DNA from: Escherichia phage JS10
Length of the DNA: 64,000 nucleotides
Direction: 5' to 3' (one strand)
Sequence record: EU863409
The notes beneath the pieces were generated by a model. It was not told the DNA's origin and did no database searches. It saw only the letters and a program-made list of their open reading frames with translations. The position numbers and the translations under genes were made by a program. Below are positions 1,920 to 6,255 of the stretch, one piece after another. Within the stretch, counting starts at the first letter, position 1, and each line of letters starts with the position of its first letter.

Positions 1920-2168
1920 TTACTTTGAACTAGAACGCGCTTTGCGCCGAACCTTGTTGTTCAATCTTTTACGATAAACAACCTTTTCTTTTGATTTAAA
2001 TTTCTCTTTGGCTTGTTCTACATCGACCCAAGCTTTAGCCATGTCCTTAGCAGTACCACCTAATTTTTTAGCAATTTCTATAAAATTTAGTCCAGATTCG
2101 TGTAAAAAATGTACTTTAACCTTATCCATAACAATTCTCTTGTTGAGTTGGTAAAGCCATCTTAACAT
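1920..2168 (-). CDS. small basic protein, possibly DNA-binding (24.3-position); alternative start at internal Met near 2129
   Basis: 82 aa ORF; Lys/Arg-rich C-terminus; segment LNFIEIAKKLGGTAKDMAKAW resembles a helix-turn-helix. Confidence 0.4.
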   Translation of the reverse strand: MLRWLYQLNKRIVMDKVKVHFLHESGLNFIEIAKKLGGTAKDMAKAWVDVEQAKEKFKSKEKVVYRKRLNNKVRRKARSSSK

Positions 2169-2199
2169 AGGATTTTTAACTTGTAAACAGGAGTATTAA

Positions 2200-3207
2200 A
2201 TGGCAGATTCTATTTTTGGTCATGACGGTCGAGGGACCTTTTCCGGTATTGCTTTAAAGGAATCGGATACTGTTATCCCTTTTGAAAAAATTCTTACTAA
2301 AGAAAGTCTTATAAACCCGGCAAGATTGGTAGGGAGTAATTCGTATGGCTTAGGCTTGGTTAGTAAATCCGGAAGAGCTGAAGTTCTGGCCCATTTGGGG
2401 ATAACCGAAGAAATGTTATCCCCTGGTATCCCTGGCCCTAAAGGTGAAAGCATTGTAGGACCGAGAGGCCCGGCTGGTCCTGTAGGCCCTGTGGGTCTAA
2501 ATTGGAAAGGAACATGGAGTGCTGCAACAGCCTATGTTAAGGATGATGCAGTAGGGTACAATGGGGCTTCTTATTTTTGCGTTCAGGATTCTACCGGTAA
2601 TAATCCTGCTGAAGAAAACAGCCTTTACTGGGCCTTATTGGCTTCTCAGGGTGCACAAGGCGAACAGGGTATCCCGGGTAAAGATGGTGAGCAGGGTCCG
2701 CAAGGTGTTCAAGGTCCTCCTGGGGTGGATGGGATTGATGGACTTGACGGAGCTACTGGCCCTCTAGGTCCTCAGGGTCCTCAAGGCGAACCTGGTAAAG
2801 ATGGCACAGATTTGTTTTCATTCCATAAGTATACCAACGTTGCTGCTGGGTACGGTGAAATAAAAATACCTGGGGTCGCCAATACGGTTCTTAGAGTTAG
2901 ATTGGTTAACAACCAAATAGAATACAGCATTTTAAGTAAAGGTGGGACTACCCGATATTGTGATTATCACTTTGTTGCTCCTAGTGTTTCGGGTGGAACG
3001 GTTACTACCGGTGGCGGAACTAAGACTTTGTCTCCTACAGGCTCATTTGTTATAGTAAGTGCGGCATATAACGGGCTACGTCCTATTAATATAACCTTAA
3101 AGGAATGGGGTTCTAAAACAATTTCAGAAATAACAGTATTTCAACACGGGCGCAGTGTAGATTCTAATAAACCTATATTGGTTAAAATGGTTAGTTTCCC
3201 TTATTAA
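2200..3207 (+). CDS. collagen-like repeat protein with a CBM5/12-like aromatic motif
   Basis: 335 aa; AGGAG RBS before the ATG; Gly-X-Y tracts (GIPGPKGESIVGPRGPAGPVGPVG; GAQGEQGIPGKDGEQGPQGVQGPPGVDGIDGLDGATGPLGPQGPQGEPGKDG); motif TWSAATAYVKDDAVGYNGASYFC...P...LYWALL resembles chitin-binding type 3 domains. Confidence 0.8.
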   Translation: MADSIFGHDGRGTFSGIALKESDTVIPFEKILTKESLINPARLVGSNSYGLGLVSKSGRAEVLAHLGITEEMLSPGIPGPKGESIVGPRGPAGPVGPVGLNWKGTWSAATAYVKDDAVGYNGASYFCVQDSTGNNPAEENSLYWALLASQGAQGEQGIPGKDGEQGPQGVQGPPGVDGIDGLDGATGPLGPQGPQGEPGKDGTDLFSFHKYTNVAAGYGEIKIPGVANTVLRVRLVNNQIEYSILSKGGTTRYCDYHFVAPSVSGGTVTTGGGTKTLSPTGSFVIVSAAYNGLRPINITLKEWGSKTISEITVFQHGRSVDSNKPILVKMVSFPY

Positions 3208-3218
3208 TTGGAGGTAGC

Positions 3219-4079
3219 ATGTCTATACAAGTAAATGGACCTCATTATGAATTGGTTGGGAGAACGGTAACTCTTAGGGCTGTTTTATCTGAATCTTTAA
3301 CTGACGCTGATATAAAATGGTACAAAAACGGTGTAAACGTTCCATTATTAGATAAAGAAGACCCGATGTATCTAAATCTTTGGGATGTAGGGTTTCCGGC
3401 TTCTGGGACCTATTATGCAATAGCAACCGATAAACTTACACAAGAGGTTTTTCAAAGCGACGATTTTGTTTTAGAAATAGGAATGGAGCCTAGAGATATA
3501 GTTATTTCCGTAGAAAATTTAGATGCTATCGTAAAGGCGGCCATAGGTCAAAAAGTTTCTTTACAACCTTTAATTTCTATGGGTGCCACGCCCTGGGCTG
3601 AAGTCGAGTGTGAATGGTGGAAATACGATAAAATGGTTTCAAATGTAAAGGATTTGGACGTTGATATAAATCCTTCTATGTACGGGACATATTCACTTAA
3701 TGTTTCTGCTACCGCTGAAGGAGCCTATAATCCGTATCATGATATAGTTACGGTAGATATCATGCCTTTAGATGGTATTTTACCAGAACCTGAAGTGTGT
3801 CCTTTTATATACTCGAATGATTTAAATCAATATTTGTCTTATCCTGGTGGAAGAAATAGGGCTCATATGTGGATAGGTTGGTGGGTATTGGATGAGATAA
3901 AAGGAGCCCTTGCTAAAGACCAGGATTGGGCTATCAATATAGAAGATAGCAATTTTAGGTATAAGTGTGAGCTCATGAAAGTGGCAGAACTTTTGTCACG
4001 ATATCCTGATGTAGAAATACAGGAATCAAGAAATGGATACATTTTGAATAGGAAGCACCTGACATTAAATGTCATATAA
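3219..4079 (+). CDS. Hoc-like protein: Ig-like N-terminal region plus Hoc-type C-terminal capsid-binding region
   Basis: 286 aa; GGAGG RBS; Ig-like segment IKWYKNGVNV...SGTYY; C-terminus WIGWWVLDEI...DW...EDSNFRY...YPDVEIQESRNG parallels the canonical Hoc C-terminus at 4124-5533. Confidence 0.8.
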   Translation: MSIQVNGPHYELVGRTVTLRAVLSESLTDADIKWYKNGVNVPLLDKEDPMYLNLWDVGFPASGTYYAIATDKLTQEVFQSDDFVLEIGMEPRDIVISVENLDAIVKAAIGQKVSLQPLISMGATPWAEVECEWWKYDKMVSNVKDLDVDINPSMYGTYSLNVSATAEGAYNPYHDIVTVDIMPLDGILPEPEVCPFIYSNDLNQYLSYPGGRNRAHMWIGWWVLDEIKGALAKDQDWAINIEDSNFRYKCELMKVAELLSRYPDVEIQESRNGYILNRKHLTLNVI

Positions 4080-4080
4080 C

Positions 4081-4112
4081 AAAACGGGAGAGCGAAAGCT
4101 CTCCCGTTTTTA
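4081..4112. terminator. Bidirectional rho-independent terminator between the Hoc-like gene and hoc
   Basis: Hairpin cgggagagc-gaaa-gctctcccg flanked by an A-run and a T-run. Confidence 0.65.
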
Positions 4113-4123
4113 TTTAGCCAAAA

Positions 4124-5533
4124 TTAGTAAAAATAAATTATACCTGTGTCAAGAGCCGAACGATGGATAATTCTTCCATTTCGTGATTCTTGTACATCAA
4201 CCTCTGGATAATCCGCAACCATTTTTTGAAGAGTGTAGCGATGGAGATAATAATTGCTATCTGGGTCATCAGTTTTCCAATCTTTACCTTCAAGTGTCAT
4301 TTTCTGGATTTCATCCATAACCCACCAACCGGCCCAAATATACGCTGAATTACGAACCGGCAGCGGATGGACGTAAGGTAGTTCGCCTTCCGGTTCAGGA
4401 GCAACTTTAGGCGTAATTGTTACATTACCAGATTTTTTGACAGTCACAGGATTATAGTCGGTAGCCGAAACCACAACAGAAACTTCAATAACCTGTGAAC
4501 CTTCAGCACTTGTATCGACTACTAAAGTATCTGTGGTGCCGGCAACAGGTGAACCATCTTTCTTCCAAGAATATGCAAAAGTAGCACCAGCAGGCGCACC
4601 TGCTACGGTAGCTTTAAAAGAAGCTGGAGTTCCTTCCGGAGTATTAATAGAGGCCGGCGCTAAAGTAACAGAAACACCTGTCATGGTCTTTTTAGTAATT
4701 GTTACACTTCCGGTTTTGGTAACGGTTAAATCGTTATAATCCGTACCTTTTAGGACTACCGAAACTTCAATAGTGTAAGAACCTACTGTAGATGTATCAA
4801 CAGCAAGGGTATTACTGCTTTCGCCCGGAATAATAGAACCATTTTTCTTCCAAGAATAAGTTGCATTTACGCCGGAAGGAGCGCCAACTACATCCGCTTT
4901 AAACTGTGCAGATGAGCCTTTCTCTGTACTAATTGAGGCTGGTGTTAAAGTAACGGAAGCACCTGATATAGTTTTCTTAACAAAAGTTACCGCAATACCT
5001 TTAGTAGCTGTAGCCGGGTCATATTCAGGGGCGGTAACAGTAACTTCACAGTTCAACGTGTAATTTGCTTCTGCTGCTTCAGTTACAGTAATAGTTTTAC
5101 CAGTTTGACCTGAAATTACAGTTGTATTACGTTTCCAAACATAAGCCATTGTAGCGCCAGCAGGGACACCCGATACGTTAGCAGTAACAACTTGGGATTG
5201 ACCGATTTCTTTAGAAACGGAAGTAGGGTCTAAGGTCAAAGAAAGAGCCCCAATGGTCTTATTAGCTACAGTAACTTCAAAAGTTTTTTCAGCTACCTCA
5301 GGTTCGCCTTCGGTCGGAGTAGAAGTTGCTACTACTTTTAAAACTTTCTTACCAGCTGGAGCCGCACCGGTATATCTCAAAACATTGGTGGCCTCTGGAT
5401 TAGAAGCACCGTCAATGGTCCATACATATGTAACGGTTCCTTCTACAGCTGCACCTGTTGCGGTAGCAGTGTAGTTGGCGCTTTCGCCTATTTTAATAGA
5501 CGCAGCGCCGGCTATACTTACAGTAAAAGCCAT
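4124..5533 (-). CDS. hoc: Hoc, highly immunogenic outer capsid protein (Ig-like repeats plus capsid-binding C-terminus)
   Basis: 469 aa; several Ig-like repeats (AT[FY][AS]WKK[ND]GS...), C-terminal WAGWWVMDEI...YPEVDVQESRNG; position as in T4. Confidence 0.85.
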   Translation of the reverse strand: MAFTVSIAGAASIKIGESANYTATATGAAVEGTVTYVWTIDGASNPEATNVLRYTGAAPAGKKVLKVVATSTPTEGEPEVAEKTFEVTVANKTIGALSLTLDPTSVSKEIGQSQVVTANVSGVPAGATMAYVWKRNTTVISGQTGKTITVTEAAEANYTLNCEVTVTAPEYDPATATKGIAVTFVKKTISGASVTLTPASISTEKGSSAQFKADVVGAPSGVNATYSWKKNGSIIPGESSNTLAVDTSTVGSYTIEVSVVLKGTDYNDLTVTKTGSVTITKKTMTGVSVTLAPASINTPEGTPASFKATVAGAPAGATFAYSWKKDGSPVAGTTDTLVVDTSAEGSQVIEVSVVVSATDYNPVTVKKSGNVTITPKVAPEPEGELPYVHPLPVRNSAYIWAGWWVMDEIQKMTLEGKDWKTDDPDSNYYLHRYTLQKMVADYPEVDVQESRNGRIIHRSALDTGIIYFY

Positions 5534-6233: not shown

Positions 6234-6241
6234 TATAAATA
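6234..6241 (+). promoter_or_regulatory. T4-type late promoter TATAAATA upstream of uvsW
   Basis: Exact TATAAATA about 30 nt upstream of the uvsW ATG. Confidence 0.5.
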
Positions 6242-6247
6242 TAATTA

Positions 6248-6255
6248 TATTTATA
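6248..6255 (-). promoter_or_regulatory. T4-type late promoter TATAAATA (- strand) upstream of inh-hoc
   Basis: Forward tatttata is TATAAATA on the - strand, about 35 nt upstream of the inh start. Confidence 0.45.

Follow-up and report, generated by a model that had tools for sequence, protein, structure and literature searches.

What is encoded by the two genes that lie next to hoc in the genome of Escherichia phage JS10, and do their products work together? JS10 is a coliphage of the genus Dhakavirus (Straboviridae) whose sequence record, EU863409, is 171,451 bp long; among the records of the phage collection, the closest is Esco_phi_B-01, which is unannotated and has 96.6% nucleotide identity. 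The window analysed here is a stretch of 64,000 nucleotides of JS10 DNA, and positions given without another label refer to it. A first-pass annotation of the window had pointed to two + strand open reading frames (ORFs) at 2200-3207 and 3219-4079, coordinates that proved exact, and had seen in them an accessory cassette. We call them ORF1 and ORF2, the product of the latter Hoc-2, and the product of the neighbouring canonical hoc gene Hoc-1. Among phage capsid adhesins, Hoc is the standard example, cited for mucus adherence and environmental sensing, and is a major phage-display platform.

The most informative feature of the cassette, which the first-pass annotation had missed, is a conserved N-terminal anchor on the fibre encoded by ORF1, together with the strict pairing of this fibre with Hoc-2. 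The cassette as such is not unique, nor is it unannotated, as both genes have been named in GenBank since 2009, the pair is present in many T4-like phages, and a second short Hoc is already mentioned in the literature (PMC10385173). Since both genes were annotated before, the new point is their strict linkage, a variant of capsid decoration; in the full-text literature we found no description of the pairing or of an adaptor reading of it. We tentatively propose, as a reading that falls a little short of probable, that the pair is a two-component capsid-fibre module, in which Hoc-2 would act as a capsid adaptor mounting an exchangeable adhesive fibre on the head.

A short Hoc and a modular fibre

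ORF2 is very likely a capsid-binding Hoc. It matches PHROG 1149, “Hoc-like head decoration” (3.7e-44), and the solved T4 Hoc structure 5vf3 (5vf3_Z, phmmer 1e-16). An AlphaFold2 model built with 24 homologues has a mean predicted local distance difference test score (pLDDT) of 88, and consists of two immunoglobulin (Ig)-like beta-sandwiches (aa 1-185) followed by an alpha/beta C-domain (aa 198-286); its top Foldseek match in the PDB is the Ig string of RB49 Hoc (3shs, E 1.3e-11). The Pfam ig match is weak (E 0.27). Profile and structure searches (PHROG, phmmer and Foldseek) thus agree in placing ORF2 in the Hoc family, and bear out the first-pass description of a second Hoc-type protein with Ig-like domains ahead of a capsid-binding domain. 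Of the two Ig-like domains, Ig domain 1 is the sole one kept in the minimal Hoc-2 forms, which measure 166 aa in Cronus, 195 aa in L025 and 171 aa in L036.

Fokine et al. 2023 (PMC10385173) have listed the residues through which T4 Hoc holds on to all six gp23* subunits. The gp23-contact or structural residues Y293, R300, W306, W309/W310, D313 and E355-G359 of T4 Hoc are all retained in ORF2, where they correspond to Y198, R212, W218, WW221-222, D225 and ESRNG269-273. ORF2 departs from T4 Hoc in two respects only: His295 is replaced by an asparagine (Asn200), and 7-9 residues are inserted in the beta1-beta2 loop. Both departures are common to the JS10, CLB_P2, CGG4-1 and L025 lineages. The C-terminal signature motifs quoted in the first-pass annotation are found in both Hoc proteins of JS10, as WIGWWVLDEI or WAGWWVMDEI, DW, EDSNF or DPDSNY, and YPDVEIQESRNG or YPEVDVQESRNG. 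ORF2 therefore combines the C-terminal capsid-binding residues, the N-terminal Ig string and the family and structure matches of a Hoc. Because it carries the Hoc capsid-binding domain, it should use the Hoc site on the capsid; the earlier suggestion that the two proteins may occupy the same site is well supported, and Hoc-1 is the presumed competitor of Hoc-2 at the hexamer centre.

Two loci elsewhere are of note for their Hoc genes. In Salmonella phage CGG4-1, three Hoc paralogues stand in a row (L005:3998-8590), namely a 285-aa Hoc-2 (+) and Hocs of 944 aa and 279 aa (-). In metagenomic T4-like sequences (L022:5888-6175 and L023:5887-6174), the canonical hoc is just 95 aa long, a capsid-binding domain without Ig domains, and this bare hoc adjoins a full fibre and Hoc-2 cassette.

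ORF1 is made of an N-terminal anchor region, two collagen tracts separated by an aromatic knob, and a C-terminal tip (Table 1). The collagen Gly-X-Y tracts noticed in the first pass (3+5 and 18 triplets) are above the Pfam gathering threshold for PF01391, with 41.4 bits against 27.2. The “lectin motif” was an overstatement: the resemblance of the knob to CBM5/12 (PF02839) is there (E 7.3e-5, profile positions 1-28 of 44), but its 23.2 bits stay below the cutoff of 26.2. Homologous knobs in many relatives do pass this cutoff, for instance P0155 at 39.1 bits. The ORF1 knob may then be called CBM5/12-like, family membership of ORF1 itself being unproven. Comparison of the knob with the ChiA1 chitin-binding domain (1ed7) gave an E of 0.21. 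In the AlphaFold2 monomer, pLDDT is 81-91 in the knob, which contains beta strands, below 50 in the collagen tracts, and 36-67 in the anchor region; low confidence of the anchor in a monomer model is what one would expect if this segment takes up its fold on a partner.

The tip of ORF1 is 55% identical to that of the VR25 fibre, and recurs in collagen proteins of Drexlerviridae (AugustePiccard, RobRod40, e4/1c), of Vequintavirinae (A7_1, A5-4) and of a podovirus. Most ORF1 relatives of T4-like phages carry a different tip. Judging from this distribution, the tip is mobile and exchangeable.

Linkage, exchange and co-divergence of the two genes

The anchor core (aa 1-45) follows the pattern M-A-D-x-x-F-G-H-D-G-R-G-x-F-x-G-x-x-L ... 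I-x-F-x-x-I-L, and eight of its positions (G7, H8, G10, R11, G12, G16, L19 and F28) are invariant over nine phages from five genera. It was found by tblastn in 21 of 50,697 phage records, all of them Straboviridae. An exhaustive HMMER search of 1.84e9 cluster representatives returned 32 anchor matches, about 18 of which are genuine, all N-terminal on collagen fibres; the remaining ones are TPR proteins aligning to aa 46-74, and were judged spurious helix-to-helix matches. Scanning IMG/VR with the anchor motif gave 4 loci only, all copies of isolates already included, and a sequence profile search of the PDB with the anchor gave no match.

We defined the module as a fibre with an N-terminal FGH[DN]G[RL]G...F..IL, encoded next to a short Hoc that has the conserved Ig domain 1 (Ig-1), with both genes in the same orientation. 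This arrangement is found in JS10, with an 11-nt spacing, and likewise in 18 T4-like lineages from several genera, the two genes being co-oriented and separated by -11 to +12 nt. Among isolates, every full-length anchor fibre adjoins a Hoc-2, in 10 lineages that include Dhakavirus, Gelderlandvirus, Roskildevirus, Ishigurovirus, other Aeromonas phages and Pantoea phage Phynn. The paired isolates are JS10, CLB_P2, dhabil and dhaeg, ABTNLsp5, Salmonella phage CGG4-1, Pantoea phage Phynn (whose fibre is without any collagen), Erwinia phage Cronus, IT22, FBB1, and Aeromonas phages 65, AS4 and GomatiRiver_11. The pairing also holds in 4 metagenomic lineages that were reached through homologues of the fibre. 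In one of these, L025/26, the gene order is reversed, a 195-aa Hoc-2 coming first and the fibre second after a 9-nt gap, with adjacency and orientation retained.

To avoid ascertainment bias, we also searched in reverse, starting from members of the Hoc-2 profile. An anchor fibre was present upstream in 4 out of 4 Hoc-2 genes having a complete upstream gene, and two more cases were consistent with this, one with an overlapping 492-aa collagen gene, the other a locus cut by the contig end and showing the C-terminus of a fibre. The place of the pair varies. It is found between 24.3 and hoc, directly after gp24 paralogues (Cronus, FBB1, L036), beside the thymidine kinase gene (Aeromonas phage 65, L033), beside a NAMPT gene (Phynn) and beside Acb1 (L027).

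The apparent exceptions to the pairing, IME08, PspYZU05, AP1 and VR25, are scars. Both partners have been deleted together in PspYZU05 and AP1, where just anchor fragments are left. In IME08, Hoc-2 stands behind a 24-codon anchor remnant (MPDNPLYGHDGRG...; ORF MPDNPLYGHDGRGVSLELTSESTF* at L003:1905-1979), and a second, frame-disrupted anchor-fibre gene lies 1.5 kb away, after gp24b (L013:2704-4103). In VR25, a tiny ORF, MPDILERKDLLYNRHYFNKY* (L010:4139-4200), resembles a JS10-type fibre start fused to a Hoc-2 end (..GYILERKDLVY). It is the deletion scar of an older cassette, and indicates that cassettes turn over at that locus; the scar is followed by a different, VR7-type fibre and Hoc-2 cassette, in which anchor and Ig-1 are both divergent.

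Some details of these loci were seen in passing. The only Hoc of the region in the Pseudomonas phage PspYZU05 (L008:3729-4393) is 132 aa long and aligns with the second half of Ig-2 and the C-domain of Hoc-2. A 49-aa anchor fragment comes before it, and the protein resembles the outcome of a single deletion across the fibre/Hoc-2 junction. The second anchor of IME08 is in another frame than the annotated “tail fiber-like” coding sequence (gp169), a sign of either a frameshift or an error in sequencing.

The two genes behave as one inheritance unit, swapped jointly between near-identical backbones. Between JS10 and CLB_P2, the backbone protein RnlB is 99% identical, against 50% for the anchor and 51% for Hoc-2. 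Between CLB_P2 and CGG4-1, RnlB falls to 56% identity, with 71% for the anchor and 64% for Hoc-2.

Divergence was compared by Mantel tests over 14 lineages, with RnlB as a backbone marker in ten of them. Anchor divergence followed that of Hoc-2 Ig-1 (r 0.57, p 4e-4, n=14; r 0.74 for the n=10 with RnlB), compared to an r of 0.23 with the Hoc-2 C-domain and of 0.24, not significant, with RnlB. The fibre tip, which is closer on the DNA to Ig-1 than the anchor is, gave an r of 0.43 with Ig-1. The Hoc-2 C-domain correlated with the backbone (r 0.42, p 0.007). A need for the C-domain to match the resident capsid, and for Ig-1 to match the anchor of the fibre, would produce such a pattern. Since neighbouring genes are transferred together in any case, the pattern is no more than suggestive.

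Where the fibre may be mounted

If Hoc-2 is an adaptor, its C-domain would, like T4 Hoc, bind gp23* hexamers at their centre, and would share the site with Hoc-1 or compete for it. ORF1 would form a trimeric collagen-like fibre of roughly 25-30 nm (0.286 nm per residue x 80 collagen residues, plus the knob and the tip), whose anchor (aa 1-45) would dock on Hoc-2, most likely on the distal Ig domain 1. The knob and the exchangeable tip would then make weak, reversible multivalent contacts with surface glycans. The likeliest target would be the bacterial envelope, because the tip is common to other coliphage fibres; mucus is also possible.

A capsid location of the fibre is suggested by its relatives in Drexlerviridae. 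ORF1 aa 76-335 is collinear with AugustePiccard bas01_0010 over collagen, knob, collagen and tip (39% identity, E 2e-52). The genes of bas01_0010 and of e4/1c e41c_0011 belong to the head module, in which they are flanked on one side by the prohead protease or a GDSL-type “head decoration” gene, and on the other by the major capsid gene. At whole-protein level, the N-termini of the two proteins match DUF1737 (PF08410) above the cutoff of 24 bits, with 26.7 and 31.6 bits. By cryo-electron microscopy, the DUF1737 of phi24B gp84 binds the capsid at hexon centres (bioRxiv 10.64898/2026.04.10.717836). ORF1 itself is without a PF08410 match, and has the FGHDGRG anchor instead. The same fibre body would thus come with a capsid anchor in cis in the siphoviruses, and with another anchor plus a neighbouring T4-type hexamer-centre binder in the T4-like phages. 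The Drexlerviridae DUF1737-collagen proteins are probably head fibres mis-annotated as tail fibres: the genes of AugustePiccard (L029:2877-4310) and e4/1c (L031:2383-3900) are annotated “tail fiber” or “collagen repeat”, and are immediately upstream of the major capsid gene. The upstream neighbour in AugustePiccard is the GDSL-esterase “head decoration” protein.

Promoters of the relatives are also informative. Exact TATAAATA late boxes are found upstream of the module at -42 in ABTNLsp5, -43 in L027, -75 in Phynn and -63 in L034, and late boxes with one mismatch, at -30 to -45, in VR25, L022, L024, AS4 and GomatiRiver_11. With a background in the window of 0.0625 exact late boxes per kb per strand, about 0.2 would be expected in the 24 upstream regions of 120 nt, and 4 were observed. 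This supports late expression, as for a structural gene, in at least some lineages, and the JS10 genes may be expressed late as well.

Taken together, ORF1 is probably head-associated. The first-pass proposal of an extra capsid-displayed module very likely holds for ORF2, by virtue of its Hoc domain; for ORF1, we infer display on the virion from the linkage to Hoc-2, the head-module context, and the DUF1737 on a homologous body.

Several points weigh against a Hoc-2 adaptor carrying the fibre on the head. Co-transfer alone can produce both linkage and co-divergence, a confound that the Mantel tests leave in. Hoc is a monomer and a collagen fibre a trimer, which leaves the stoichiometry of an adaptor complex unexplained. 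The VR25 cassette has a divergent short anchor beside a Hoc-2 with a different Ig-1, which fits co-variation, and is a single case. At the domain level, the DUF1737 matches are partial (28/53 profile positions). The tip of ORF1 is also carried by a fibre encoded within a Vequintavirinae tail-fibre gene cluster, from which it follows that the anchor, and not the body, decides where a fibre is mounted, and that the body alone is no indicator of a capsid location. Upstream of JS10 ORF1 no recognisable late promoter (TATAAATA) was found, as the first-pass annotation had also claimed, and within 120 nt upstream there is neither a late box nor a MotA box in JS10, CLB_P2, dhabil and L025. In the full-text literature, we found no virion proteomics, microscopy or binding data for the product of ORF1 or ORF2.

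One alternative is that the module consists of two independent decorations, Hoc-2 sitting at hexamer centres as an extra Ig-type adhesin and the fibre binding the capsid directly by an anchor of its own, for example at quasi-threefold sites or hexamer centres, so that linkage would come from joint acquisition only. Collagen-like or trimeric head fibres that bind the capsid directly are known, such as SPP1 gp12 and phi29 gp8.5 (PMC7602432), the homologous Drexlerviridae fibre has its own capsid anchor, DUF1737, in cis, and head-gene context and late promoters in relatives fit independent decorations equally well. However, it gives no reason why the anchor is never found without a neighbouring Hoc-2, whatever the direction of search and the gene order, why Ig-1 is the Ig domain always retained, or why the divergence of the anchor follows Ig-1 and not the capsid-encoding backbone. 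We therefore regard independent decorations as rather unlikely.

Alternatively, ORF1 may be an accessory tail, neck or baseplate fibre, and Hoc-2 an unrelated second decoration in the same variable hot spot. ORF1 belongs to PHROG 5073, “tail fiber protein” (1.1e-69 over aa 4-202), its RefSeq annotation is tail fibre(-like), its tip is common to the protein in the Vequintavirinae tail-fibre cluster, and JS10 is without a late promoter. But the PHROG label is unverified, and the Drexlerviridae head-module proteins are members of this family too. Across about 20 lineages, the fibre gene stands beside Hoc-2, usually among gp23, gp24, hoc and inh, and never in a tail or baseplate module; it stays beside Hoc-2 even far from hoc and inh. 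Pfam and PDB profile searches detected no known tail-attachment domain of T4 type in ORF1. Neither gene context nor attachment domain thus marks ORF1 as a tail fibre, and this alternative appears unlikely.

As to Hoc-2 being an assembly chaperone of the fibre, or the cassette an early-expressed non-structural moron, this is very improbable: fibre genes are often followed by the gene of their own chaperone (T4 gp37/gp38, lambda Stf/Tfa), and JS10 has just a weak sigma70-like element upstream, but a chaperone needs no invariant gp23-contact residues and ESRNG loop across subfamilies, the gene order is reversed in L025, and four relatives have exact late promoters.

Returning to the adaptor role, it may extend beyond JS10. 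In many T4-like phages, a Hoc paralogue could have turned from an adhesin into an adaptor for interchangeable trimeric receptor-binding capsid fibres; the anchor and adaptor cassette would be exchanged horizontally between genera, and the head would thereby gain a swappable specificity for host or mucus. We consider this scenario somewhat less likely than not.

The JS10 locus and known systems

Features of the locus are collected in Table 1. The bidirectional terminator common to the cassette and the convergent hoc gene, already recognised in the first pass, has a 13-bp stem and a GAAA loop at 4081-4110, with U-runs on both strands; its folding free energy is -23.1 kcal/mol on the + strand and -22.7 kcal/mol on the - strand (z about -8). 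A second terminator is present at 400-421, after gene 24, and the cassette is therefore isolated from the gene 23-24 late transcript.

The first-pass annotation gave the T4 gene order rightly as 24, rnlB, 24.2, 24.3, hoc, inh; in T4, the interval from 24.3 to hoc is free of + strand genes. In the Dhakavirus Bp7, 24.3 is directly followed by hoc and the cassette is absent. Since T4 and Bp7 are without it, and other T4-like phages have it, the cassette is a variable insertion, as the first-pass annotation had suspected; that it was inserted relative to T4 and varies among Dhakaviruses is well supported by these gene orders. A foreign origin on the evidence of base composition was rejected: the local GC peak (0.52) coincides with the Gly/Pro-rich collagen tract 2, and the remaining cassette, at ~0.38, is at the genomic level. 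Antisense ORFs at 2220-2453, 2781-2930, 3274-3426 and 3863-4075 (all -) were discarded as shadows of the coding frames.

Neighbouring genes call for a few remarks. The start of the DUF2774 (24.3-like) ORF at 1920-2168 (-) is ambiguous, with a Pfam match beginning at residue 14; it is annotated in a long or a short form in relatives, leaving an intergenic space of 31 or 70 nt before ORF1. In Bp7 (L032:3517-5020), uvsW is annotated as two coding sequences (213 nt and 981 nt) with a gap, then comes an HNH homing endonuclease gene, and uvsW may be interrupted.

Upstream of ORF1, JS10 has the conserved segment TTAACTTGTAAACAGGAG in common with CLB_P2, dhabil and L025. The sigma70-like TTGTTG-N17-TAACAT reported in the first pass is present, but at 2140-2168 and not at 2136-2164. 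Its -35 hexamer has 3/6 matches, it was unreported by the sigma70 scan, and it overlaps the 5' coding end of the divergent 24.3-like gene; we conclude that it is no better than chance. The scan as a whole gave no more sites than in shuffled sequence. The nearest late-like box on the + strand, AATAAATA at 1816-1823, was rejected, such boxes occurring at the chance rate of about 1 per kb. It lies in the 24.2/24.3 intergenic segment CATAATAAATATAATTAAATAG (1811-1830, +), where this one-mismatch box, AATAAATA, overlaps a perfect TATAAT; a transcript from there would cross the 24.3-like gene in antisense before entering the cassette, and at chance rate this is not promoter evidence. Further along, an exact TATAAATA is also present on the + strand at 6234-6241, before uvsW, back-to-back with the - strand box of the inh-hoc operon.

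Table 1. Coordinates of the cassette and of adjoining features in the JS10 window
Feature	Position	Strand	Description
Upstream region of cassette	2130-2199	+	Overlaps possible 5' end of divergent 24.3-like gene
ORF1	2200-3207	+	335 aa; exactly ACL78402/YP_002922525.1 “tail fiber-like protein”
N-terminal anchor region of ORF1	2200-2424	+	aa 1-75; core aa 1-45; helical linker aa 46-75 ending LGITEEML
Collagen tract 1	2425-2502	+	aa 76-101; 3 triplets, two-residue break, 5 triplets (aa 87-101)
CBM5/12-like aromatic knob	2503-2649	+	aa 102-150; NWKGTW..Y..DD.V.Y.G..Y....
Collagen tract 2	2650-2811	+	aa 151-204; 18 uninterrupted Gly-X-Y triplets
C-terminal beta-sandwich tip	2812-3204	+	aa 205-335
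ORF1-ORF2 junction	3208-3218	+	11 nt; GGAGG Shine-Dalgarno for ORF2
ORF2 (Hoc-2)	3219-4079	+	286 aa; exactly ACL78403/YP_002922526.1 “hoc head outer capsid protein”
Hoc-2 Ig-like domain 1	3219-3494	+	aa 1-92; kept in every Hoc-2, including minimal 166-195 aa forms
Hoc-2 Ig-like domain 2	3495-3773	+	aa 93-185; missing from Cronus, L025 and L036 forms
Hoc capsid-binding domain	3810-4076	+	aa 198-286
Bidirectional intrinsic terminator	4081-4116	both	Common to cassette and convergent inh-hoc late transcript
Canonical hoc (Hoc-1)	4124-5533	-	469 aa; four Ig domains and C-domain; convergent to cassette
Late box before inh-hoc	6248-6255	-	Exact TATAAATA; own promoter of the inh-hoc operon

CLB_P2, JS10 and related phages are in use for therapy or have been proposed for it. 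If a fibre is indeed mounted on the head by Hoc-2, T4-like heads would recognise surfaces through a second layer, modular in nature, which bears on host range, adsorption kinetics and gut persistence. The name “tail fiber protein” would then be wrong for many annotated proteins of Straboviridae and Drexlerviridae, and the anchor/Ig-1 pair would offer a natural, non-covalent tag for display of trimeric proteins on T4-type capsids.

How does the module compare with known systems? A second, shorter Hoc is known in Serratia phage Muldoon (a 314-aa Hoc) and in Enterobacter phage PG7 (PMC10385173). As in those phages, a longer canonical Hoc is encoded by the genome that carries ORF2. It differs in belonging to a distinct Hoc-2 clade, with a conserved Ig-1 and an invariable pairing with an anchor-bearing fibre gene, a pairing not mentioned in PMC10385173, and, in the JS10 lineage, by the His295 to Asn replacement and the beta1-beta2 loop insertion.

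Among head fibres, SPP1 gp12 is a collagen-like trimer that binds reversibly at hexamer centres, and phi29 gp8.5 is a head fibre (PMC7602432). Both form trimeric, fibrous appendages that the capsid does not need for its stability and that are believed to help in adhesion to the cell surface, and SPP1 gp12 is collagen-like, as is ORF1. We found no sequence relationship of either protein to those of the cassette. They bind the capsid directly, as a single component, whereas here anchorage is proposed to occur in trans, via a Hoc paralogue. The Drexlerviridae DUF1737-collagen proteins resemble ORF1 over the whole fibre body, are encoded in the head module, and have an N-terminal family that binds hexon centres; ORF1 differs from them by its FGHDGRG anchor, the lack of DUF1737 and the Hoc-2 gene alongside, and their own capsid binding is predicted from phi24B. 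Lastly, the module resembles the modular tail-fibre systems with adaptors, in which the N-terminal attachment part is conserved, shaft and tip are exchanged, and tips move horizontally among unrelated coliphages. What sets it apart from these systems is its head-gene context, and the proposed mounting on the capsid through a decoration protein.

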